From NCBI GenBank assembly GCA_965197725.1, contig CBDANQ010000059.1, positions 32,001-96,000 of the forward strand: DNA of 64,000 nt. The letters run 5' to 3'. Within the stretch, counting starts at the first letter, position 1; every line of letters begins with the position of its first letter. The notes beneath the pieces are model-generated. The model was not told the DNA's origin, did not search any database, and saw only the letters and a program-made list of their open reading frames with translations. This DNA comes from Longimicrobiales bacterium (GTDB lineage: Bacteria > Gemmatimonadota > Gemmatimonadetes > Longimicrobiales > Gaopeijiaceae). Positions 9,484-61,803 of the stretch are shown here, piece by piece. A program made the translations under genes and the position numbers.

Positions 9484-11040
9484 ATGACCGCTCTCCTGCG
9501 CCTGTCGCTCGTCATGATCCTCGCCGGGTGCGCCGTGAACCCGGCCACCGGTCGTCGGGAGTTCTCCCTCATCAGCGAGAGTCGGGAAATCGAGATGGGC
9601 CGAGAGGCGGACGCAGACATCTCCGCCTCGCTCGGACTGGTCGATGACCCCGCGCTCCAGAGCTACGTCTCCGACATCGGGCACCGTCTGGCCGCGGTCT
9701 CCGAGCGCCCGCACCTCCCGTGGTCTTTCAAGGTCGTCGACGATCCACTCGTCAACGCATTCGCGCTGCCCGGGGGATTCATTTTCGTGACGCGTGGCAT
9801 CCTCGCCAACTTCGAGTCAGAGGCGGAGCTGGCAGGCGTACTCGGGCACGAGATCGGTCACGTCACCGCGAAACACTCGGTATCCCAGATGAGTCGGCAG
9901 CAGCTCCAACAGATCGGGCTGGGTGTCGGCATGATCTTCTCGTCCAGGGTCCGTCGCTTCGGTGACGTTCTGGGCGTGGGCCTCCAGCTCATGAACCTCC
10001 GATACTCACGGGGGAACGAGTCCGAGTCCGACGAACTGGGCGTGCGCTACATGACCCGGACCGCCTACGACGCCGAGTCGATGATCGGAGTCTTCCAGAT
10101 GCTCGCGGCGGTGTCCGGTGGCGAGGGGGAACGGATTCCGCAGTGGCAGCTCACGCACCCCTACCCCGAGAACCGCGAGACCGACATTCGTGAGTTGATC
10201 GCCGCATCGGGGAGTGCGGCCCGGGGCACGGTCGGCCGAGGCGAGTACCTGGATCGTCTCGGCGGCCTCGTCTACGGGCCGAACCCGCGGGAGGGGTACT
10301 TCATCGGCGACCGTTTTGTGCACCCTGACCTCGAGTTCGACGTGACGTTCCCGGAGGGCTGGACAGCGGTGAACGAACGCTCGTACGTGGCAGCGTTGAG
10401 TCCCGCGGAGGACGCAGCGGTGATCCTTCGGCTCGCGGAGGGCGCCACCGATCCGCGCGCCGCCCTACGCTCCTTTCTCGCCCAAGACGGCGTCTCTGGC
10501 CGCGCCGCGCGCAACGATGAGAGGGACGGGATCTCGGTCAGCCGCGCTATTTTCACCGCCAACTCCGCCGACGGCGCGCTGCGTGGCGAGGTGGGGTTCA
10601 TTGGTCTCGACGGGCGCGTATATCAACTGCTGGGGTTTGCCAACGACGTCACCTGGCGGCAGTACTCGGGCGTGGTGGCGGCACCTCTCTCGAGCTTTAC
10701 TCGACTCACGGACCCACGGACACTCGAGGTGCAGCCGTGGACCCTAGAAATAGTCGCGCTGCCTGAGGATATGTCGGTTCGAGACTTCCACGGCCGGAAT
10801 CCCGGTTCGGTCTCCGTCGAGGAGCTCGCGAGGTTGAATAGTCTAGCGCCGGACGCCGTAGTGCCTGCGGGCACGCGCCTCAAGCGTGTCGTAGGCACAA
10901 CCCTCCCGGGCCAACCAGATGTCGCACGAAGAGCGCCTTGCGGCGACCTTCGACGCGACATGGTCACAGCACTGGAGGAGGCCGGGGTCCCTACGCGCTC
11001 GGAGGGTCCATCGCGAGCATCGCATACGGGGAACCAATAG
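9484..11040 (+). CDS. M48 family zinc metalloprotease lipoprotein (BepA/YfgC-like) with LysM-like C-terminus
   Basis: Lipobox LAGC, VNAFALPGG, HEIGH, YSRGNESESD and THP motifs; start at ATG 9484. Confidence 0.9.
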   Translation: MTALLRLSLVMILAGCAVNPATGRREFSLISESREIEMGREADADISASLGLVDDPALQSYVSDIGHRLAAVSERPHLPWSFKVVDDPLVNAFALPGGFIFVTRGILANFESEAELAGVLGHEIGHVTAKHSVSQMSRQQLQQIGLGVGMIFSSRVRRFGDVLGVGLQLMNLRYSRGNESESDELGVRYMTRTAYDAESMIGVFQMLAAVSGGEGERIPQWQLTHPYPENRETDIRELIAASGSAARGTVGRGEYLDRLGGLVYGPNPREGYFIGDRFVHPDLEFDVTFPEGWTAVNERSYVAALSPAEDAAVILRLAEGATDPRAALRSFLAQDGVSGRAARNDERDGISVSRAIFTANSADGALRGEVGFIGLDGRVYQLLGFANDVTWRQYSGVVAAPLSSFTRLTDPRTLEVQPWTLEIVALPEDMSVRDFHGRNPGSVSVEELARLNSLAPDAVVPAGTRLKRVVGTTLPGQPDVARRAPCGDLRRDMVTALEEAGVPTRSEGPSRASHTGNQ

Positions 11041-11508
11041 CTACACTCGGCATCGACGTCGTCGCGTCAGTCAATTCCGAGAAACTTGGTGTCCTTCTGT
11101 AGGCGCTTTCCGCCCGGCGATTTCTATCTGGATGTCGACGCGGCGGATGCTGCCATGCGTCAAGGCGCTCAGTTCAACATCATCCATCCCACGTCCGGGC
11201 TGAAGATCGACGTCTTCCCGGACAAGAAGGACGAGGTCGCCAGGAGCCAGATCGAGCGCGGCCGTCGCCTCCCTGCTCTGCCGGGCCCCACGGCTGTCTT
11301 CTCCTCGGCCGAGGAGCTGATCGTGAAGAAGCTCCAGTATTACCGACTCGGTGGCTCCGACAAGCATCTGCGAGACGTGCGTGCGATGCTCGATATCTCC
11401 GGAAGGGAAATCGACTTGGAGCGTATTGGTGAATGGGTCGACCGGCTCGATCTTTCCGAGGAATGGAGCTTGGTGCCGGGTATCCCATCATCCCATCTCC
11501 ATGACTGA
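10960..11508 (+). pseudogene. Frameshifted nucleotidyltransferase (AbiEii/DUF6036-like)
   Basis: Joining three frames gives MVTALEEAGV/YALGGSIASIAYGEPIATLGIDVV.../FYLD...FNIIHPTSGLKIDVF...ELIVKKLQYYRLGGSDKHLRDV. Frame breaks near 10990 and 11100. Confidence 0.7.
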
Positions 11509-11568
11509 CCTCGAAAGCACGTGACCGCCGTTTCGAGAGCGGTACCCATCCTCACAACCGGAGGCTCC

Positions 11569-13143
11569 ATGGCAGCTGCCCGACGGCGGCGCTCCGCAAG
11601 AGCTCGGGCTACGCCGACGCCGACCTCGCGGCAGGTGCTCTATCTACCCCTAGCGCTGACGCTCGGCCTGCTGGGGCTGTCGCTCCTGCCACGTGTGCAG
11701 GGCAACCTTCGTCTCGCGTGGTCGTTCTGGGGTACGGCCGGAGCGCTCCTGATCTGGCAGACCGCGCTCTTCCTGCGACTCCGGGGTGCTTCCGCCGGCC
11801 GGTCGCTCCAGAACGTGCTCCGGCCACAGCACTACGTGCAGGCGGTGGTCCAGATCGCGGTGTTCGCCTACTGGGGATGGTACTGGCGACCCGTCTACGA
11901 CTTCGCCTTGCTCCTGGCCGCGCAGCTCGTGTTCGCCTACGTCTTCGACATGCTGCTCGCGTGGTCGCGGCGCGAGACGTACGTGCTCGGCTTCGGTCCG
12001 TTCCCGATAATCTTCAGCATCAACCTCTTCCTGTGGTTCAGGGACGACTGGTTCTACCTACAGTTCCTGATGATCGGGGTCGGCTTCCTCGGGAAGGAGC
12101 TCGTGCGCTGGCACCGCGCAGGCCGGAAGGTGCACATCTTCAACCCGTCCGCCTTCGCGCTCGGGCTCTTCTCGCTCGTGCTGATCACTACGGGCACCAC
12201 CGATCTCACGTGGGGACAGGAGATCGCCTCGACGTTGACGCTCGCGCCGCTGATTTACCTGTACCTGTTCCTGCTGGGCCTGATCGTGATGTACTTCTTC
12301 TCGATCACGCTCGTCGCCGGTTCCGCCGCGGTCGTGCTGTTCGGACTGAGCGCACTGTACGCGTCTCTGACGGGGGTCCCCTACTTCCTCGACTCCGACA
12401 TCCCCGCCGCGGTCTTCCTCGGCCTCCATCTCCTGATAACCGACCCGTCCACCTCGCCGCGGACATCACCTGGGAAGCTCCTCTTCGGAGGTTTGTACGG
12501 AGCGGGTGTGTTCGGCCTCTACATGGTCCTGGGGGCCGCCGGGGCGCCAACGTTCTACGACAAACTCCTGGCCGTGCCGCTTCTGAACCTGAGCGTTCGC
12601 GGGATCGACAGTGTGGTTGACCTCGCCCGGGAAAGCCCCGCGCTCGCCCGCTGGCAACTTAAATGGGCTCCCCTGCGCGCCAACCTAGCCCACATGGCCG
12701 CCTGGATCGTGTTCTTCGGAGCGATGACCGCGATGGGCAAGGCCGACGGAAAGCACACGGGTGACAGCCTGCCGTTCTGGGAGCAGGCGTGCGTGCAAGG
12801 CCGCTCCAACGCTTGCACTCGGTTGATCCAGCTGCAGACCACGTATTGCGGCGACAACTCGGCATGGGCGTGCAACGAGCTCGGCATACACTTCACGCAG
12901 GGGGAAATCGTGGCCTCCGATTCCGAGCTGGCGCGCGGCTACCTCGCGCGAGCCTGCGAACTCCGGTTCCAGGCCGCATGCGTCAATCTGTTGGACCCGG
13001 GTGGCTTCAACCGCACCGACCCCCGGCTCCTCGATCTCAGACTGCTGCTGCGAGAGGCGGGCCAGAACCTTATGGAGATGTCTGAGCCGGAGTTGTACAC
13101 CCGCGCGTGTGATCACGACTGGGCCTTCGCGTGCAGTCGATGA
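11569..13143 (+). CDS. Polytopic membrane protein with RnfD/NqrB-like motifs and a Cys-rich Sel1-like C-terminal domain
   Basis: HIFNPSAFAL and LLITDPSTSPRT motifs, many transmembrane segments, C-terminal AC/CxxLG repeats. Confidence 0.7.
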   Translation: MAAARRRRSARARATPTPTSRQVLYLPLALTLGLLGLSLLPRVQGNLRLAWSFWGTAGALLIWQTALFLRLRGASAGRSLQNVLRPQHYVQAVVQIAVFAYWGWYWRPVYDFALLLAAQLVFAYVFDMLLAWSRRETYVLGFGPFPIIFSINLFLWFRDDWFYLQFLMIGVGFLGKELVRWHRAGRKVHIFNPSAFALGLFSLVLITTGTTDLTWGQEIASTLTLAPLIYLYLFLLGLIVMYFFSITLVAGSAAVVLFGLSALYASLTGVPYFLDSDIPAAVFLGLHLLITDPSTSPRTSPGKLLFGGLYGAGVFGLYMVLGAAGAPTFYDKLLAVPLLNLSVRGIDSVVDLARESPALARWQLKWAPLRANLAHMAAWIVFFGAMTAMGKADGKHTGDSLPFWEQACVQGRSNACTRLIQLQTTYCGDNSAWACNELGIHFTQGEIVASDSELARGYLARACELRFQAACVNLLDPGGFNRTDPRLLDLRLLLREAGQNLMEMSEPELYTRACDHDWAFACSR

Positions 13144-38215: not shown

Positions 38216-39942
38216 TTAGCTCGGGAGCCAGGCAAAGCGAACCTGGGCCAGATAGTTCGACCGGTCCTGATCCGTGAAATTGAAGCGCGTGACACGCTCG
38301 TATCCGAGTCGGACGGACGTGCGCAGGTCCGAGCCGGCGTGCTCGCGCGTCCAGTCGACGATGGCCCTGAGGCGGATCTCGTCGGGGTTGTCGGCCGTTC
38401 GTCGCCGGGGGATCTTGCCTTTTGGCATGGCCCAATCATCCCCGCTGTATCGCTCCCACGCGCCGGCAACGCTCACGACATCGAGCCGATCTCGCCAATC
38501 CAAGCCACCCTGCCACGATGTGGCGAGAGGACCGATCGCATACCCGATCAGACGTCCGCCGACGGTAAGGCCGTCGCGGAGCTGGTGATGAGTATGCGCG
38601 CGCATGCGCGCGGTGTGACCCTCGAGCCAAAGGTCGAGACGTCCCCTGCGGCCCCGCCCCACAGCCTTCATTCCGAGGGTCCAGGCGGCGTCGCCCCAGA
38701 AGGACTGAGTGTGACCGATTATTGTCACGTCCAGGTCGGTCGAGAGTCCCTCGAGGTAGAACTCCAGACCTTTGCCAGGCAACGTGACGCGTACGTCGCC
38801 CATAACGACCTTGTCCGAAATCTCCTCACCCTGAGGCCTGATGAGAAAGACGTCGAAGATTCGGTCCTTCACCGTTGCACGGGGGGCGCCTTCGCCTCCC
38901 TGGTTGTTCAGCAGGCTCAGGCCTATTTCCACGGACCGGCTGGGGCGTAGGCTCGCCTCGAAGACGATCAGTTTGCCGTGCCGTATCAGACGGTCGCCGC
39001 CTCTAGGTCTGCGATCCAAGCGGCTCCAGTGACGGACCCTAGGACTCCAAGAACCCAAGGAAGTCGTGCCGCGCGTTCGTGAGACACCCGCACCATGTCG
39101 AGTCCGCGAGCGTTGTGAGAGAGCAAGGGTCCGGCCAACCGGCCGTGACCGCTGGCGACGTGGTTCCGACCCACCTCTAAAGCCATTCCAGCGAATACAC
39201 CACGGACGTAGGCGTCAAGAAGTGTCGAGCCTTCGCCGCTGGACGTCCCGGTAGGGCGAGAATGCCACACGCGTGGTCGAACCTGGAGTGCCACTCGTGG
39301 AATGAGCTGAATATCGGCGGTCGCCTCACCCGCCCCCGTCCAGCCGTCGGCGAGGACACGACCCTGATTGCGCTCCAGCAGCGGGTTCAGGTCGCCTTCG
39401 ATGAGGCCCTCGTCGTAGCTAACCCGGATTGGCCGGGCCGGACTGTCTGCCGACGTCAGATCGAACGCCGCGGACCTTGCCGAGAAACCGGCGTCGGCGC
39501 GGCCGCACACATCGTCCGTCGCTTCGCACAGTAAGGATATCTCCTGCGCGAAGCGCGCCTCGAGACGGCTGAGCGCCTCGTAAAAGCGAGCTCGGCCTTC
39601 GTCGGAGCCATCCAATGCAGTGCGAGCATGTGCAGCGAAACGCGCAAAGGCCATGCGAGAATACGGACGCTGAGCCATCAAGGGCACCTCGACCAGGCCG
39701 ACGGCGAAGAGCGCGTCGAGGTCTGCGTAAGCCGGGTCGAGGTTGGGGACGTAAGGGGAGCTCTGGGCCGTGGCGTCCGCCGGGCTCAGGATCGCCACAC
39801 CGAGCAGTAGCACGAGAACGTTGTGGGCCCCGCGTACCGAGGAGACGACCCGAGCCCGGTGCTCTCTAGAATCCCGTCGCGAGACCTGGACTTGCGCGCC
39901 GATGTGCCCGTCTCCTTCCGCTTGGTCGTCGAGGAGGGTCAC
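38216..39942 (-). pseudogene. Capsule assembly Wzi-family outer membrane protein split by one frameshift
   Basis: ORFs 38986..39942 (QRPYSR, EVGRNH, LLSHNARGLDM) and 38216..39058 (ends in FAWLPS-type beta-strand) join near 39002. Confidence 0.7.
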
Positions 39943-40904
39943 CTCCGGGATCCGGCCGGCGAAAACCGCCGCTCATCCCACAGCCGATCTACGAGGCCGG
40001 CGACCACCCGGACTCGATGGCGCAAGGCCTCAATGACCGCCGGGCTTCGGGCCGATATGTCGGTCCGCTCTCCGGGATCCGCAACCAGATCGTAGAGCGC
40101 CCACCGTTCCGCCGCCTGAGACTCAATGTACTTGAAGCGACCCTGCCGCACGCCTTTCAAGCGAAGGTGGAATGGATTCGAGAGATATACGGAACGGCCC
40201 GTAACGACCCGGCGGAGGGATGTACCGACCGCGTGATTCCGGCCGGTCAGGCCCACGATGTCCATCAAGGTCGGGAAGAGGTCCACCTGGCTCCCCACGG
40301 CGTCGATGCGAATCGGCCCGTGCACACGCCCGGGAGCCCATATGAGAAGCGGCACCCGGAACGACTCCTCATAGAGGTGGCGAACGGGCATGAAGTTCTC
40401 GTCGTGCTCGCCCATCGGCACCCCCGTGTCGCCAAGTACCACCAACACGGTGCGCTCCGAAAGCCCGGCAGCGTCCAAGAGCGCGATAAAGTGGCCCAGC
40501 GCCTGGTCCGAGTACGAGAGCGTACCCAGGAAGTCGCCGTCCTCTCCGTCGGGACGGGCGCGAGGGCCAGTCGGCTCGAACCCCTCGGGTAGTTGCCAGG
40601 GATGGTGGTTCGAGATCGTGAACGCGGTAACGAACCCCGTGCCGCCCTCCTCGTCGTGGGCGGCAAGCCAAACCGCGATGTCTTCCATGAGCCATGGGTC
40701 GTCGACGCCCCAGCTACCGCGGGTCGCCTCCGGATACCGTCTGGCCATCTCCTCGCCGCCCCTGATTGTCGGGAACCCGTGCACCCCGAAGAACTCGGTC
40801 TGAAGCTCGAAATCGAGTGGACCATTGTGAAAGTAAGCGACCTGATAGCCGGCTGTACCCAACACGTCCTGAATTCCTATCAGGGGGTATCCCACGTCGT
40901 CGCT
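39939..40904 (-). pseudogene. C-terminal part of an LTA-synthase/sulfatase-family protein, fused in frame to a transposase
   Basis: WGVDD, TISNHHPW, YSDQALG, VVLGDTG, RVPLLI, SQVDLFPT and LYDLVADPGE motifs; membrane N-terminus absent. Confidence 0.75.
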
Positions 40905-42110
40905 CTGCACGGCACGGGGGGTTCCAACCCCGAACCGCTTGCGCATGAGAAGGCCGAGGTTGAAGGCCGCCGCGTGGATCAACATCCGTTTTCGAATCTC
41001 CTCCTGGCCCCGTATGTGGACGCGACGCAGCCCTCCGGTCACAAGCAAGTGCGCAAACCCCCGCTCCACCTTCTCGCCGCGCTGGCGCAGCAGCCGCATC
41101 CCCCGGTTGCCGCGGATCCGGCGGCGGTTGTCGTAGGTCGGCGTCTGCGCGTCCCGGTTGTTCTTCCATTTCCGGCGCCCGCGGTTGGGCTCGCTCACAT
41201 AGCTGCGCAGCTCCCGCTCCTTCACGCCCGTCATGGTCTTGTTCGAGTGGTAGCCTTTGTCGGCCACCACTTCCTCGGGCTCTACCTGCACTACTTCCAG
41301 CTGCCGCTCTGCCTCGTCCAGCGTGTTGGGCAGCGACGCCACATCTCCCCCGTCCATCGTCTGCACCGTCACCGCCACAAGCGCACCGGTCTCCATGTCG
41401 ACCGCCTGCTCCAACTTGTGCGCCAGGCGCGTCCTGCCGTCCTTCATCTTCGTGATCCGCGCCTCCGGGTCGTGCGGATGCACCCAGTCCTTGTTCGAGC
41501 CCTTCTTCGGACGCTTCCGGTCCAGCGTCGTCAGATCCTTGCGCGTCGGCGTCTCGATCCCCGACGCCCGGGCCACCTGCTCCAGCCATTCATCGTAGCC
41601 CAACCCGTCGTCGCGCCGCACGATCGTGCGCATCGCCGCATTCGCCTCCAGCGTCGTCGAGTCGACGCCCAGCGTCTTGCCGCTCAGCAACCCCGACCCC
41701 TTCAGCAGCTCCAGCACCCGCCCGAACACCGCCGCGTGCGCTTCCACGCTCAGGCGCTTGCGCGTCTTCGACAGGGTCGAATGCTCCGGCGGGTTCTTCG
41801 CCCACCCGTATCCCAGAAACTCACGCAACGACAACGAGTCCCCACACCGCCAGGCAATGCCCCGCTCCGAGCCGATCCCTTCCAGGTAGCCCACCATCAT
41901 CATTCGGAAATACACCCCGGGAGCAATCCCCGGCCGACCCCGATTGTCCGCGTAGAACTCACGGCATGCCTCTTCCGCGAACTCGTCAAACCCGCTTTTC
42001 GCCAGAAGCTCGTTCAAGGCCCGGTAGAACGGGTTGTCCAAGGCCCGAATCTCGCTCGCCACCACGAACATCTCGCCCTGCCGAGCCTCGGGCCGCTTGC
42101 CTACCGCCAT
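40905..42110 (-). CDS. DDE transposase (DUF772 + DDE_Tnp_1-like); frame continues into the sulfatase remnant to 39939
   Basis: GRPGIAPGVYFRM, SERGIAWRC, PEHSTLS, GVDSTTLEANA, DPEAR, VADKGY, VERGFAH and AAAFNLGL motifs. Confidence 0.88.
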
Positions 42111-42187
42111 CGCCGTCCTCGCTGCAAAAACCCTCGTGTCCTCCTGATTTAACACAACAGCGATGACCGGACTTTATCCACGGTCTG
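40905..42187 (-). mobile_element. IS element (IS1182/IS5-like DDE) with one end missing
   Basis: Begins next to CTAG (42188-42191) that interrupts the upstream gene; carries the transposase; no distal end or transposase stop codon found. Confidence 0.75.
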
Positions 42188-57128: not shown

Positions 57129-58043
57129 GTGATCATGCCCTGCCGAAACGGAATGCCCTTCGTGGGTCACGCCGTTGAGCGCGTCCTGGCTCAGAAAGCG
57201 CCCCTGGAACTTCTGTTCGTGAATGTGGGCTCCACCGACGGCAGCCTGCAGGAGGTCTCTTCGATCGACGACGATCGAATCCGAGTGATCGAGGCACCGG
57301 CCGGCACGGCTCCCGGGCGTGCGCGCAACCTCGCGGCCCGGCAGGCCCATGGTGACGTACTGGCCTTCGCGGACGCCGACGATCTCTGGCGGCCGGACAA
57401 GCTCGAGCGCCAACTGCGCCTCAGGTCGGAATCCGGCGCGGCGCTCGTATACAGCGACTGCCGGGTGATCGACGGTGCCGGCCGGTTGCTCGGGGCCTAC
57501 CTCAGCCGTCATCGTCCGACGGAGGGGACCGTCACGGACCGGCTCCTCGAGGAGAACTTCGTCCCGCTCTCGACGGTTCTCGTGGACCGCACGGCGTTCG
57601 AGGGTGTGGGCGGGTTCCATGAGGGCTTCCGTGTAGCGTGCGACTACCTGTTCGCGATTCGTCTCTCGCTTCGCGCCGCCTTCGCCCTCGATCCAGAGAC
57701 TCTGGTGGACTACAGAATCCACGACCGAAATCTGACAGCGGACTTCCGGCGCACTTATGCCGAGAATGTCCGTGTCTTCGACCTGTTGCTGGCGGACGAC
57801 GTGGCGAGCTTCGGGGCCGCGTGCCTCCGGAGGGGTCGCAGCCTCGTCCTCTGGCGCTGGGCCATCCGGGAGGGGATGGCTGGGCCGGCGGCATGGACTG
57901 AGGCCGGGCAGCGAGCCGGCGAGGCGCTCCGGTCGGTCGGCCCCGCGACGGGCGTCGCCACGCTTGCCTCTGCGGTCCGCGGCGGCCTGCGCGGCCTTCC
58001 GCTCCGCATCCGGATGGCTCGCGCCCGAGGAAACACCAGGTGA
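57129..58043 (+). CDS. GT2 family glycosyltransferase
   Basis: PLVSVIMP, GSTDGS, ARNLA, AFADADDLWRPDKLERQL and YRIH motifs. Start uncertain: homology begins before the first GTG/ATG. Confidence 0.88.
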   Translation: MIMPCRNGMPFVGHAVERVLAQKAPLELLFVNVGSTDGSLQEVSSIDDDRIRVIEAPAGTAPGRARNLAARQAHGDVLAFADADDLWRPDKLERQLRLRSESGAALVYSDCRVIDGAGRLLGAYLSRHRPTEGTVTDRLLEENFVPLSTVLVDRTAFEGVGGFHEGFRVACDYLFAIRLSLRAAFALDPETLVDYRIHDRNLTADFRRTYAENVRVFDLLLADDVASFGAACLRRGRSLVLWRWAIREGMAGPAAWTEAGQRAGEALRSVGPATGVATLASAVRGGLRGLPLRIRMARARGNTR

Positions 58044-58876
58044 AGAAGGTTCGCTTCAGCGTCGATGGCGCCGTTGTGGAGGTCGAGATCGACGATCCGG
58101 CGGAGGCTGAACGCGTCGCCGCGCTCTTCCCGACGTACGTCGTGGAGCTGGAGGACTCCGAACCGCAGGCTTTGATTTCGGTGCAGACCGATGCGGATGG
58201 CGGCACGGTTCGCTCCGGCGACCGTATTCAGCGGTATGAATGGAAGAGCGACCTGCTCTCCGGCGTCGAGTTCGAGGCGAACCAGCGTCTGCTTGCCACC
58301 CAGGCGGGGTACGTGCACTTGCACGCGTCGGGCGCGGTGGTGGACGGAAGTGCCGTTATCGCCGTCGGGCAGTCCGGTTCTGGCAAGTCCAACATGGCGA
58401 TGGCGTGGCACCGGGCGGGCTACCGTTTGCTTGGGGACGACGCCGTCCTGCTCGGGAACGACGGCAAGGTGCGAAGTTTTGCGCGGCTGATAAAACTGGA
58501 CGTGGACCGCGCCAGTGCCTTCGGGGTCGAGGTCGAGCGCACTCTGGCGTTCGACTCGACCTCTGCCGAGATCTGGTATGATCCGTCCGATGGTGCGGGT
58601 TGGGCGACAGACTTGGTCCCACTTCGGACCGTGGCGTGGGTCCGTTGGCGGCCAGGGTCGCGGCTGAGGGTACGCCGCCTGGAGCCGGCGGAGTCACTCA
58701 ATCGGATGATTAGCGAGCTCTTCAAGACCGGGCTCGGGCCCGCGGAAGCCATGCCGGCTCTCGCGCGCGTGGCTTCCGAGGCAGAACTGTTGGAGGTCGA
58801 GTTCGAGGACGCCGTGGAAGCGGCAGCCGTCTTGGCCTGTGTCGCTTCCGTCTCTAGCAGTCCGTGGAAGAAATAG
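58040..58876 (+). CDS. HPr-kinase-related P-loop kinase
   Basis: LHASGAVVDG, Walker A GQSGSGKS, LLGDDAVLL; GTGA overlap with the GT2 stop. Confidence 0.85.
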   Translation: MKKVRFSVDGAVVEVEIDDPAEAERVAALFPTYVVELEDSEPQALISVQTDADGGTVRSGDRIQRYEWKSDLLSGVEFEANQRLLATQAGYVHLHASGAVVDGSAVIAVGQSGSGKSNMAMAWHRAGYRLLGDDAVLLGNDGKVRSFARLIKLDVDRASAFGVEVERTLAFDSTSAEIWYDPSDGAGWATDLVPLRTVAWVRWRPGSRLRVRRLEPAESLNRMISELFKTGLGPAEAMPALARVASEAELLEVEFEDAVEAAAVLACVASVSSSPWKK

Positions 58877-58887
58877 GTTCCCAGCGG

Positions 58888-59964
58888 ATGATGGGTGGGA
58901 GAGAAGGCAGACACGAGCTCGGTATACGGGGCATCCTGAGTCGAATGCTCGGCTCGCGCATGCCGCCGGCCTCGGAGGGAGAGCGGGTGTACGGGCTGCT
59001 CTGGGACGAGACGCTCCTGGAGGCGCGCGCCGACGTGGGGCGGTTGCTCGGCACTCATGAGATCCCCTACCTCATGTACAAAGGTGGGGCGCTGTTGGGT
59101 GAGCAGTACCGGACCGGTGACGTACTGATGGTCGATCTGGACGTGCTGGTTCCGCTCGTTGCGTGCGAACGGGCGGCGGCGGCCTTCGAGGCCGAGGGTT
59201 GGCGAAAGAAGGACCCGGTGGGCGGCCCGGCGCTGCCAGGCGCACCCGGCGCTGTCTTCGCCCGCCCGTTCGCCGACGGGGCGTTCAGCGCTCTGGATGT
59301 GGACGTACACTGGCGAGTCGCCCCGGTCGACCGGCTATTCCCCTGGCGTGGTGAGCCAATTCCAGAGGAGGTCTGGCGATCCGCCGTGCGTGCGGGTTCC
59401 GCGCCGGTCCCGCGCACGGGGCACCACGCCGCCATGCTCGTGCACCACCTGGTGCGACACGACTTCCTCCACTTCCGCAGCGTGTTCGATCTGGTTCAGC
59501 TGTGGCCGGCGCTGCTCGCTCCCGAGGAGAGTGCTGCTTTCGCCTCCCTCGCGGCCAGCTTCGGAGTATCTCGCGCGGCCGGCTGGCTGTGTCGGGCACT
59601 CGAGGTCGACCTCCGACTCGAAGCGCTTGGCTCGCAGGCGCCACGGTCTCCTTCCGCGCGCGCTCCGAGCAGCCTCCGCTCCGTGCTATCGCTCGTAGGT
59701 CTGGCGCTCGATGCATCGAACCGCGACCTCGAGGCCATGACGTTCTCGCGGGGGCTCCGGCGCCTGAGGACGGTGGATCGTCCGCTACGTGCGTCGCGCA
59801 CGCTCTTGATGGACGCGCTGGCTCCGCCGGATGAGTATCTTCGATGGCGATGGCCCGGTACGCGGGCCCCGGTACGGCGACTCAACCACCTGGGTCGGTT
59901 GCTCGGACGGCTGATCGAAGACGACCTGACTTCCCCCCTCCCGGACGATGCCCCGGAGATTTGA
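58888..59964 (+). CDS. Nucleotidyltransferase (NTP_transf_5-like)
   Basis: YKGGALL...Y, DLDVLVP, DVDVHW and HHLVRH...DL motifs. Start at 58864 or 58888. Confidence 0.82.
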   Translation: MMGGREGRHELGIRGILSRMLGSRMPPASEGERVYGLLWDETLLEARADVGRLLGTHEIPYLMYKGGALLGEQYRTGDVLMVDLDVLVPLVACERAAAAFEAEGWRKKDPVGGPALPGAPGAVFARPFADGAFSALDVDVHWRVAPVDRLFPWRGEPIPEEVWRSAVRAGSAPVPRTGHHAAMLVHHLVRHDFLHFRSVFDLVQLWPALLAPEESAAFASLAASFGVSRAAGWLCRALEVDLRLEALGSQAPRSPSARAPSSLRSVLSLVGLALDASNRDLEAMTFSRGLRRLRTVDRPLRASRTLLMDALAPPDEYLRWRWPGTRAPVRRLNHLGRLLGRLIEDDLTSPLPDDAPEI

Positions 59965-60230
59965 TGAGCGCGACGCCCAAGGCCAGAGAGGACGTGGTGT
60001 TCCGACCCCTTGCGGACGAGTGGGTCCTGTTCGACCCCCGCCGTCATCTGCTGCACGTGCTCAACCTCACCGCGGCTTTGGTCTGGACCCACTGCGACGG
60101 GGAGACCTCGCTGGAGGCGCTCGTCGAGGAAGTGGAGTCCGCGTTCACGGATCCGCCACCACGCAGCGACCTCGTCCGAGACGTGGACGAGGCTCTGCAG
60201 CGCTTCCGTAACGAGGAGCTCTTTCTGTGA
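59964..60230 (+). CDS. PqqD-family / RiPP recognition element (RRE) protein
   Basis: 88 aa: VVFRPLADEWVLFD...HVLNLTAALVWTHCDG...LVRDVDEALQRF; ATG overlaps the upstream TGA. Confidence 0.9.
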   Translation: MSATPKAREDVVFRPLADEWVLFDPRRHLLHVLNLTAALVWTHCDGETSLEALVEEVESAFTDPPPRSDLVRDVDEALQRFRNEELFL

Positions 60231-60958
60231 GCCTCGGCCACTACGTGAGCATGCTCGGAGACCGTCGCCGCATCGAGGGCTTCCAGCAGGGCCTGGCTAG
60301 TGCAGTCCATCCGGGCGACAACGTGCTGGACGTGGGCACCGGGCTGGGGACCTATGCGTTCTTCGCTGCCCAGGCGGGCGCGGGGCACGTATGGGCGGTG
60401 GACCGCGATCCCGTGATCCATGCGGCTGCCATGGTGTGCAAGGCCAACGGCTTCGACGACCGCATCACGTTCTTGCGGGGCGAGATATCTGAGGTCGAGC
60501 TTCCGGAGCCGGCCGACCTGGTGGTCTTCGAGGACTTTCCGATCCGCCTGTTCGACGACCGGACATGGTGCCTCGTGCGGGACGTCCTGGGCAAGCACCT
60601 TCGGCCGGGTGGGCGCGTCTTTCCAACACGGATGCGCCTGAACCTCGGCTTGGCGGCCGGTCCCGAGCCCGAGGCATTGGTGGCGCTCGGCGAGGAGGAC
60701 GCGGTCTGGGGGCAGACGCTTCTGCCGGTATCTCCTCCGCTAAAGGTTCCCGCGCGGGGACAGGTGCGGGCCAGTGTGCGCCCGGAGCCCCTTCCCGACG
60801 GGGCTCCTGGGTGGCTCTCGTGGGCCGTCGAGTATGGAGTCGAGGCGCGCAACGGACACGAGTTCGCGGCAGAACCCTCTTCACTTGAGGACCTCTACGG
60901 CGATATCTTGGGTATGAAGGCCGCCGAGACCCTCCCCTCGAGGGAGATCGTGCCATGA
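60227..60958 (+). CDS. Class I SAM-dependent methyltransferase, PRMT-like
   Basis: HYVSMLGDRRR, VLDVGTGLG, AAQAGAGHVWAVD, ANGFDDRITFLRG, VELPEPADLVVFE and VWGQ motifs. Confidence 0.85.
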   Translation: MSLGHYVSMLGDRRRIEGFQQGLASAVHPGDNVLDVGTGLGTYAFFAAQAGAGHVWAVDRDPVIHAAAMVCKANGFDDRITFLRGEISEVELPEPADLVVFEDFPIRLFDDRTWCLVRDVLGKHLRPGGRVFPTRMRLNLGLAAGPEPEALVALGEEDAVWGQTLLPVSPPLKVPARGQVRASVRPEPLPDGAPGWLSWAVEYGVEARNGHEFAAEPSSLEDLYGDILGMKAAETLPSREIVP

Positions 60959-61224
60959 CCGATCAGAGCCGTAAAGAGTTCTTGAAGAAGCTCGCACAGG
61001 GGAGCATCTACGCCGCTCCCGTCGTGTCGACGCTGCTGGCTCCTCGCCCGGCGAGCGGAGGGGGGCCGGGCTCCCCGATGATGATGATGGGCATGGGCGG
61101 CATGGGTATGGGCATGGGCGGCATGGGCATGGGCGGCATGGGCATGGGCGGCATGGGCATGGGCATGCCCCAGCAGCGGAATCTGCCGGATGCACCCTGG
61201 TTCAAGCCTCGTCCCGGTCGCTGA
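60955..61224 (+). CDS. Putative precursor/substrate peptide with Tat-like/YxxP leader and Met/Gly-rich core
   Basis: ATGA-coupled to the methyltransferase; SRKEFLKK...IYAAPVVSTL leader; residues 42-71 are only M and G. Confidence 0.8.
   Translation: MTDQSRKEFLKKLAQGSIYAAPVVSTLLAPRPASGGGPGSPMMMMGMGGMGMGMGGMGMGGMGMGGMGMGMPQQRNLPDAPWFKPRPGR
61078..61167 (+). repeat. Coding microsatellite (atg)4 followed by ggcatg/ggcggcatg repeats
   Basis: Encodes MMMMGMGGMGMGMGGMGMGGMGMGGMGMGM (15 Met, 15 Gly). Confidence 0.95.
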
Positions 61225-61310
61225 GGGCCGCGGCCTCGGGGCCGCGAAGCTCACTACGATATAGGCCTCCGGAGGGCCGCTGTCGCTAACGGACCACTAC
61301 CCCGAACCCG

Positions 61311-61338
61311 TTGACACCCCCAGTACCCCCCTTACCTT
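61311..61338 (+). promoter_or_regulatory. Candidate sigma70 promoter of the str operon
   Basis: TTGACA-16 bp-TACCTT, about 95 bp upstream of rpsL. Confidence 0.6.
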
Positions 61339-61391
61339 TCTATGCTCTAGTCGGACCAGCGATTCGCAACGACAGCGAAGAGCCAAATACG

Positions 61392-61415
61392 ACGCGCCGA
61401 CAGGCGCGTTTTTTT
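61392..61415 (+). terminator. Terminator-like hairpin in the rpsL leader
   Basis: acgcgcc-gaca-ggcgcgt followed by T6. Confidence 0.5.
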
Positions 61416-61431
61416 CACGATCAGAGGGCAA

Positions 61432-61803
61432 ATGCCGACGATCAACCAGCTCGTGAGGAAGGGCCGCAAGGCTGTGCACAAGAAGAACAAAGCGCCGGCC
61501 CTTCAGCAGAACCCGCAGAAGCGCGGTGTCTGCACTCGCGTGTATACGACGACTCCGAAGAAGCCGAACTCGGCGCTTCGGAAAGTTGCTCGTGTGCGGC
61601 TCACGAGCGGGTACGAGGTCACCGCGTACATCGGGGGTGAGGGACACAACCTCCAGGAGCACTCGATCGTGCTCATCCGTGGCGGCCGGGTGAAGGACCT
61701 TCCGGGTGTTCGGTACCACATCATCCGTGGTACGCTGGATACGTCAGGGGTCGGCGATCGTCGCCAGGGACGCTCCAAATACGGGGCCAAACGGCCCAAA
61801 TAA
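61432..61803 (+). CDS. rpsL: 30S ribosomal protein S12
   Basis: [22 protein letters not shown] and [13 protein letters not shown] motifs. Confidence 0.99.

Follow-up and report, generated by a model that had tools for sequence, protein, structure and literature searches.

A bacterial precursor peptide family with a twin-arginine-type leader beside RRE, kinase and PRMT-fold genes: a candidate pathway for phosphorylated, exported peptides

Introduction

A 64,000-nt stretch of DNA from a Longimicrobiales bacterium (contig CBDANQ010000059.1, positions 32,001 to 96,000; here called the window) contains a short open reading frame directly behind the gene for a PRMT-fold methyltransferase. An earlier note on this DNA had taken it for a precursor peptide with a Tat-like and YxxP-containing leader, a Met/Gly core and a Pro-rich tail. 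This raises the question of what kind of peptide the locus encodes, which of the neighboring enzymes act on it, and how a product with no obvious protease or exporter would leave the cell. Here, we address the question by comparing the locus with its homologues, by structure prediction and by comparison with known peptide systems (PMC numbers refer to the portion of each article that was available).

Results

The precursor is a genuine gene at the end of a six-gene cassette

The translation of the frame on the plus strand matched the one given earlier exactly, at 89 aa (Table 1). Its ATG overlaps the stop codon of the upstream methyltransferase gene, a ribosome-binding-like GAGGGAG lies 8 nt upstream of that ATG, and the frame was scored as coding by a codon model trained on its own genome. 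There are 24 close homologues, in which the leader and tail are kept and the middle is variable, as had been anticipated, and a leader profile built from 23 loci, run against 1.84 billion representatives, matched 230 clusters at 50% identity (E≤0.001); with one exception, the 150 clusters listed are at most 154 aa long. Homologues and clusters in these numbers show that the frame did not arise by chance, and the 89-codon frame is a genuine gene. No second copy of the leader was found elsewhere in the genome, and a search for a sigma-70-like promoter found none.

Table 1. Features of the cassette, in positions of the window
Feature	Positions	Strand	Remarks
GT2 glycosyltransferase, accessory	57129..58043	+	start approximate; close clade only
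HPr-kinase-like P-loop kinase	58040..58876	+	His, Walker A and Asp-Asp motifs intact
IS1182-type element end, 62 bp	58854..58915		replaces ~370 nt present in genome G002
NTP_transf_5 nucleotidyltransferase	58916..59964	+	5' end lost; start possible only inside IS remnant
Stand-alone PqqD/RRE	59964..60230	+	PF05402 above cut-off
PRMT-fold methyltransferase	60227..60958	+	in-frame 270-nt deletion, junction within 60684-60693
Precursor peptide gene	60955..61224	+	89 aa; translation, homologues, codon model
Leader, residues 1-35	60955..61059	+	predicted type I signal peptidase cut after Gly35
Twin-arginine-type motif S-R-K-E-F-L-K	60967..60987	+	RR in most relatives
RRE-binding motif Y19-x-x-P22-x-V24	61009..61026	+	conservation; modelled in RRE cleft
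Ser40, candidate phosphorylation site	61072..61074	+	early Ser conserved; phosphorylation proposed
Met/Gly tract, 30 residues	61078..61167	+	tandem expansion; candidate methyl-acceptor region
Pro-rich tail	61168..61221	+	Pro-Trp motif conserved at 61195-61200

None of the families in Pfam or NCBIfam spans the precursor, which gave only a sub-threshold keratin-head match; no dedicated family was seen among the 11 and 57 relatives scanned, and the ESM Atlas returned only leads below 0.9. The precursors form a bacterial family without an existing name, whose peptides probably undergo phosphorylation and methylation before export.

At E≤1e-4, and with a few weak, unchecked matches counted in, the leader profile matched 38 of the 313 other genomes of the taxonomic family and 27 of the 401 genomes of the class; one of the four other genomes of the genus had a match. 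Among 65 peptide-anchored loci, a count that leaves out five loci reached via the methyltransferase and two false matches, the kinase was present at 56, the RRE at 50, the methyltransferase at 43 and the nucleotidyltransferase at 21. L139, one of these 65 loci, belongs to the unpublished genome G037, which is also among the 27 class matches; the locus counts as a negative only, and none of the conclusions rests on it. Conserved-leader homologues beside PqqD genes, which the earlier note had put forward as the check on its reading, are therefore the usual arrangement. Of the nine loci without a kinase, four are found at the edge of a contig, and three or more are additional copies, the genome having a cassette at another site; eight loci have the kinase and RRE only. 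When 483 neighboring genes from 39 loci were clustered, only the kinase, RRE, methyltransferase and nucleotidyltransferase recurred broadly; no peptidase, cyclase or peptide exporter did, in line with the missing peptidase and transporter noted for this locus.

In the window, the cassette is a six-gene run between rpoC and rpsL, in the order GT2 glycosyltransferase, HPr-kinase-like kinase, NTP_transf_5, PqqD/RRE, methyltransferase and, last, the peptide. The GT2 gene was seen only in the window genome, in the same-genus genome G002 and at locus L159. The cassette (57129-61224) interrupts the rpoC-rpsL junction, a position shared by 9 of the 39 loci, and rpsL, rpsG and rpoC recur among the neighbors.

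Several variants were observed around the family. About nine loci (L126, L128-L132, L134, L135 and L137) form a subfamily with an F-x-x-P leader, a Gly/Lys-rich core and a later Leu-Ser-Pro-Thr motif, in which the kinase and RRE are joined by an HTTM/SdpB-like membrane pair and there is no nucleotidyltransferase. Lasso-like clusters at L140-L143 combine a cyclase-like gene, an RRE, a kinase, a transferase, an ABC exporter and a third type of PRMT-fold gene with Asn-rich cores; no B2 peptidase was recognized among the genes scanned there. More distant proteins (P0149-P0174) carry the same leader on unrelated cores, some of them Cys-rich. In G002, the same-genus precursor P0026 (L068:9461-9718) is frameshifted in a C run, possibly by an assembly error, and has an in-frame twin, P0007. 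Two candidate loci were dropped as chance matches, L072 (from the named-genome scan, a match inside a larger protein) and, likewise, L156; P0076, seemingly a methyltransferase fused to a precursor, looks to be the artefact of a frameshift.

The window copy carries apparently recent damage in two genes

Compared to G002 (~91% identical), the window methyltransferase lacks residues 155-244, a block of 90 that includes much of the β-barrel, and it is probably inactive. One contig from the probable source run spans the deletion junction at depth 3, a contig of a relative has the extra 270 nt, and the methyltransferases of L157 and L159 are full length. At the nucleotidyltransferase, for which there is no solved relative by sequence, the ~370 nt replaced by the insertion sequence (IS) remnant include the start of the gene. 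The parent element is 1.5 kb long with CTAG termini and 42 matches in the genome; we infer its IS1182-type name from its DUF772 and DDE domains. Two other copies in the genome break at the same 62-bp point. Elsewhere in the window, at 38219-42155 on the minus strand, the frame of a truncated transposase (DUF772, DDE) continues into that of a sulfatase, beside a capsule-assembly Wzi gene that is split in two.

Relative to G002, dN/dS is 0.16-0.33 for the cassette genes and 0.02-0.12 for rpsL, rpsG and rpoC; from these values the damage looks recent. The nucleotidyltransferase and methyltransferase look broken in the window strain, which would then make at most a phosphorylated peptide.

For this strain, it is possible, though clearly short of even odds, that the whole copy is a decaying remnant and its long tract the product of neutral repeat slippage. 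The deletion absent from the relatives and the IS remnant fit such decay, as do an otherwise kept Arg that is Leu here and the fact that the cassette was not found in three of the four other genomes of the genus. Against it, the kinase motifs and the RRE and precursor frames are intact under the dN/dS values given above, the same Arg is also replaced in the intact-looking relative L159, and the loci with only a kinase and RRE indicate that a minimal pathway could still run. The window copy is the wrong one for follow-up; relatives hold intact cassettes.

The Met/Gly tract is an expanded stretch of a variable core

Precursor residues 42-71 comprise 15 Met and 15 Gly, encoded by 15 ATG, 14 GGC and one GGT codons; the runner-up among the 3166 genes called in this genome has a Met/Gly run of 7. 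The DNA of the tract is a tandem repeat with a 15-nt unit in 3.8 perfect copies. Contigs of the probable source run are identical to the window over 58886-61137 and 61135-61500, and none of the listed contigs spans the repeat, so that the copy number of the tract is that of the window's assembly. We compared 111 cores of at least 25 residues: the longest Met/Gly run elsewhere is 13, the range in 22 close relatives is 1-13, and 21 of the 111 have no Met at all. A pure Met/Gly 30-mer as the core of the family is accordingly not supported; judged by its repeat structure, the run in the window is a strain-level local expansion of a variable Gly-X segment, in which X is Met, His, Lys, Asn or Arg depending on the lineage.

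Met-rich motifs bind Cu(I) and Ag(I), and the Met/Gly tract (elsewhere His/Gly) could be the working part of the peptide, a periplasmic ligand for these ions that methylation would tune or protect. Met makes up 9.9% of the first 30 core residues compared to 1.9% genome-wide, Met and His are anti-correlated across cores (rho -0.39), and 72 of the 111 cores have three or more Met and His residues, all as a metal ligand would have it. We nevertheless consider this role rather improbable: no copper or silver gene recurs beside the cassette in the 483 neighboring genes of 39 loci, nine of the 111 cores have neither residue, and the 30-mer is unique to the window copy. It would in any case be compatible with our main explanation, a phosphorylated and Tat-exported peptide.

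Other core features are more constant. A Ser falls within the first eight core residues in 96 of the 111 cores, mostly at +3 to +5 (shuffle mean 56, maximum 72), Pro-Trp is found in 83 (shuffle mean 19) and a Ser/Thr-x-Lys motif in 51 (shuffle mean 10); the cores are related, so the Ser and Pro-Trp tallies are not independent. On this computed conservation Ser40, previously suggested as a phospho-site, is a likely candidate. In the close clade, the tail terminates in Pro-Gly-Arg.

The leader combines a probable RRE-binding motif with a predicted twin-arginine-type signal

No second PqqD/RRE was found in the genome. The nearest solved relative of the one beside the precursor is LppB (9X8Z, E 1e-4); Asn33 of LppB aligns with an invariant Asn and the Tyr-binding Asp70 with an Asp in 15 of 17 RREs. 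Among the 118 best new representatives of the family (P0027-P0144), on which the leader statistics are based, Tyr19 is conserved in 93%, and position Tyr+5 is always occupied by I, V, M, L or F. In the predicted RRE-leader complex, which scored 0.70 against 0.00 for the best control, contacts agreed by at least 94% between runs with partner pLDDT of at least 67; the mark applied to this score is reached by 116 of 157 solved pairs and 2 of 215 mismatched pairs. Since similar RRE complexes are already solved, passing this mark may reflect memory, and the model shows likeness rather than binding. It nonetheless agrees with the proposal that the RRE docks on YxxP. The modelled interface takes in leader residues 13-29, the entire hydrophobic region, with additional touches to residues 3-11.

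The same leader resembles a Tat signal. The arginine pair is RR in 117 of the 118 leaders, followed by Phe in 86%, so that the family carries the Tat consensus S-R-R-x-F-L-K, in which replacement of Arg by Lys is poorly tolerated (PMC5539426); the window copy has RK, which occurs in 12 of 22 close relatives and is restricted to their clade. Peak hydrophobicity has a median of 1.40, compared to 1.48 for 26 RRxF-type N-termini of the genome, a set that includes some non-signals, and an uncharged stretch of at least 13 residues is present in 85 of the 118 leaders and absent from 33. For a cut after residue 35, the -1/-3 rule, which asks for a small residue at -1 and accepts small or aliphatic residues at -3, holds in 114 of the 118, and in 2-60 for thirteen other registers; Gln is at +1 in 85, as in many secreted proteins of the same genome. 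Pro at -6 (111 of 118) is partly built into the anchoring pattern and is not independent evidence. The family thus shows the moderately hydrophobic h-region and the signal peptidase site of Tat substrates, and the genome encodes TatC, two TatA/B and one signal peptidase I. The Cys count is even in 17 of 18 Cys-containing cores, eight of which share one motif, as expected from disulfides formed outside the cytoplasm. In P0070, P0087, P0089, P0095, P0105, P0117, P0120 and P0124, a conserved two-Cys motif follows the Met tract and likely forms a small disulfide loop. Curated Tat signal models did not match the window precursor; one of them, TIGR01409, was above cut-off in 3 of 57 relatives.

It is quite unlikely that the leader is a handle for the RRE and enzymes only, with the peptide remaining in the cytoplasm or being cut by an unlinked protease. 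The model places residues 3-11 on the RRE (contacts include residues 3, 6-7 and 10-11), so the RR pair could be conserved for RRE binding, as part of the binding helix; moreover, the hydrophobic region is interrupted, with a basic residue 4 before Tyr in 93 of the 118 leaders and a charged residue or His 6 after it in 46, and the window's clade has RK. What weighs against a mere handle is the full Tat consensus, the sharp signal-peptidase register with its Gln at +1, the even Cys counts and the link of one subfamily to HTTM/SdpB-like membrane proteins. We therefore favor a leader with both roles. The Tat-like character assigned to it in the earlier note is borne out by computation for the signal type and for a cut after Ala-Ser-Gly35, while the RK form on which it was based proves to be the minority form; the suggested double use, RRE docking plus export and cleavage near ASG, is consistent with the YxxP model, the Tat-type signal and the predicted cut site.

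The PRMT-fold enzyme lacks arginine-binding residues and tracks Met and His

The intact G002 methyltransferase has CARM1 as its closest solved relative by sequence (E 3e-20), and its predicted fold (pLDDT 88) is nearest to PRMT6 and CARM1, with a TM of about 0.7; the intact relative thus appears to have the PRMT fold, from which the window copy is short by 90 residues. In PRMTs, the double-E and THW motifs form the arginine pocket (PMC8623767). The first double-E Glu, like the Asp that follows it, is invariant across 46 cassette enzymes and the Trp of THW is kept, while the second Glu is lost in 43 and kept in 3, and the THW His is found in 0 of 45; the pair of glutamates with THW that marks a PRMT is accordingly not what the cassette enzymes have.

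To which residues, then, does the presence of the enzyme correspond? Counted over the 57 kinase-bearing loci away from contig edges, Met or His occurs in the first 30 core residues at 44 of 45 loci with the methyltransferase and at 1 of 12 without it; ~72% of random 30-mers contain Met or His. Arg and Lys do not track the enzyme: 14 of the 45 partner cores have no Arg, and Lys was rejected as the methyl target with 25 of 45 with the enzyme and 8 of 12 without. The exception with the enzyme, L135, has a different enzyme with an intact double-E and has Gly-Arg repeats; the exception without it, L063, has a methyltransferase elsewhere in the same genome. Sought genome-wide in 15 genomes, the methyltransferase was not found in 12. 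On the kinase tree, methyltransferase and Met/His were lost together three times, in a clade of eight loci, at L120 and at the edge locus L123. Counterexamples are L015, also at an edge, where a fragment of the methyltransferase occurs without Met/His, and L121, with Met and no methyltransferase found in an assembly that is 89% complete. An enzyme that lacks the arginine-binding residues and tracks Met/His rather than Arg makes methylation of Met or His the best guess; with few independent events, we regard this as a tentative lead, somewhat below even odds.

It is very unlikely that the enzyme is a genuine arginine methyltransferase with the Pro-rich tail or the twin arginines as its substrate. 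CARM1 and PRMT6 are its nearest solved relatives and the tail of the close clade ends in Pro-Gly-Arg, yet the second Glu and the THW His are lost at the rates given above, nearly a third of the partner cores are Arg-free, and the sole locus whose enzyme has the double-E intact, L135, is the one with Gly-Arg repeats, as expected for a real PRMT. The tail Arg residues, formerly proposed as methylation sites, are thus disfavored on these same counts, and Met/His remains the better candidate target. AerE/PoyE was set aside as a model for the enzyme: in the available text AerE is likened to GenN and PrmC, and PRMTs are unmentioned.

L135 is of interest in its own right as a candidate true bacterial arginine methyltransferase system: two Gly-Arg-repeat precursors (L135:6331-7322 and 10693-11708) lie near a PRMT-fold gene with both double-E glutamates, the frame of which is broken near its start. 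At L053, L054-L060, L062, L064, L066 and L067, many full-length methyltransferases have an extra C-terminal winged-helix segment, with a weak PqqD match in L064, that is absent from the window's clade.

Discussion

A proposed pathway

Taken together, we propose a linear, ribosomally made and enzyme-modified peptide that is bound by the RRE, phosphorylated and exported by Tat, a scheme to which we assign a probability of roughly 0.6. In the cytoplasm, the stand-alone RRE would grip the YxxPxV motif of the leader, as modelled, and the HPr-kinase-like enzyme would phosphorylate the early core Ser (Ser40 here). The nucleotidyltransferase, where present, may then build on the Ser phosphate, and the PRMT-fold enzyme, where present, may methylate Met or His in the Gly-rich tract, the weakest step of the scheme. 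The same leader would next be read as a twin-arginine signal, Tat would export the peptide, and housekeeping signal peptidase I would cut after residue 35. An RRE that covers the hydrophobic region of the signal would retain the precursor until it is modified, and we suggest that the cassette has no dedicated protease or exporter because its leader doubles as a Tat signal. Points against the scheme include the RK of the window leader and the 33 leaders without a 13-residue uncharged stretch.

A bolder version is doubtful, and we would put it well below even odds: a RiPP class, previously undescribed, whose leader would serve the RRE as a handle and Tat as a signal, and whose RRE, as a chaperone, would proofread the precursor for export. 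A PRMT-fold enzyme without an arginine pocket would methylate Met (to the sulfonium) or His repeatedly along the Gly-X tract, and the cell would secrete a phosphorylated peptide, either poly-sulfonium or methyl-His in type and possibly a ligand of soft metals. A Met sulfonium has precedent in RiPPs (PMC11285071, PMC10664482), and bacterial PRMT-like peptide methylases have been noted (PMC3417536). If true, an S-methyltransferase that modifies methionine at many sites would be chemically new and of use for labelling peptides; the cassettes also offer substrates with which bacterial PRMT-fold enzymes, themselves related to the arginine methyltransferases of eukaryotes, can be tested.

Comparison with known systems

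Phosphorylated lasso peptides share the discrete RRE, HPr kinase homologue and nucleotidyltransferase with the cassette, which has no cyclase, B2 peptidase, ABC exporter or ring-forming acid, and has its Ser near the core start, not C-terminal. Lasso ring closure needs an Asp or Glu at core position 7-9; core residues 36-71 of the precursor contain neither, and by its gene content the cassette is not a lasso system. That the precursor is a lasso peptide matured by enzymes encoded elsewhere has next to no chance: its YxxP leader, RRE, kinase and nucleotidyltransferase are lasso-type parts, and lasso-like loci with a related methyltransferase occur in the same taxonomic order, but no B2 peptidase was found in the 89% complete genome, the sole Asn-synthase match looks like a tRNA thiouridylase, and the core start is free of acidic residues. 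Known phosphorylated and phosphoglycosylated lasso peptides are paeninodin and pseudomycoidin (PMC8498205).

Among protein families, NCBIfam HPr-rel-A likewise places an HprK-related kinase beside a PqqD-family chaperone, while the models TIGR04352 and TIGR04353 are far below cut-off here, at 44 vs 200 and 22 vs 35 bits. With the eukaryotic type I PRMTs CARM1 and PRMT6, the cassette enzyme has in common the Rossmann and β-barrel domains, the first double-E Glu and the THW Trp, and it differs in the lost second Glu and THW His and in the invariant Asp after the first Glu. Its setting in an RRE cassette, not an NRPS operon, separates it from the bacterial PRMT sister groups described in the available part of PMC3417536. 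Longipeptin A is the closest parallel for Met S-methylation in a RiPP, tentatively by LopH; that enzyme resembles an MTHFR domain, not a PRMT, and the product is a lasso with one modified Met (PMC10664482). A literature search that had most subscription papers and supplements outside its range found no description of a Tat-leader RRE cassette with a PRMT-fold enzyme.

The nearest relative is the pathway for linear polyphosphorylated peptides (LPP; LppA/K/B/S/D/N) of Paenibacillus alginolyticus, a member of the Bacillota (PMC13381572); the LPP supplementary cluster tables, outside that search, could bear on the range of LPP-type clusters. Both systems have a discrete RRE, with LppB the nearest solved one, an HprK-like kinase, an NTP transferase (here at 21 of 65 loci) and no cyclase. 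Both also have a YxxPx[V/I/L] leader motif, with RRE binding only modelled for the cassette, a conserved leader before a variable C-terminus, a Ser near the core start and signal-peptidase-type cleavage, which is predicted here. LppA has Tyr at -16 followed by Ala1-Gln2-Ser3, with Ser3 phosphorylated (PMC13381572), and the cassette peptides have Ala/Gly and Gln at the same offsets from Tyr. They differ in that LPP clusters encode an archaeal-type signal peptidase, LppS (SipW-like), and an MsbA-like exporter, LppD, neither of which recurs in the cassette; the one S26 peptidase of the window genome is on another contig. The cassette instead has a twin-arginine N-terminus and an Ala/Gly-Gln cut site in place of F-E-T, its Ser lies 1-3 residues later, and it adds the PRMT-fold methyltransferase. 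At the LPP offsets, Phe at -3 occurs in 1, Thr at -1 in 5 and Ser at core position 3 in 3 of the 118 leaders. Tat, methyltransferases and Gram-negative hosts are unmentioned in the available text of PMC13381572. Without LppS, LppD and the F-E-T end, the cassette is, on its gene and motif content, not an LPP member. It works as LPP does, with a matching register, yet seems to rely on Tat and the housekeeping signal peptidase. The pathway for linear phosphopeptides, described in 2026, would thereby extend to a family that carries no protease or exporter of its own.
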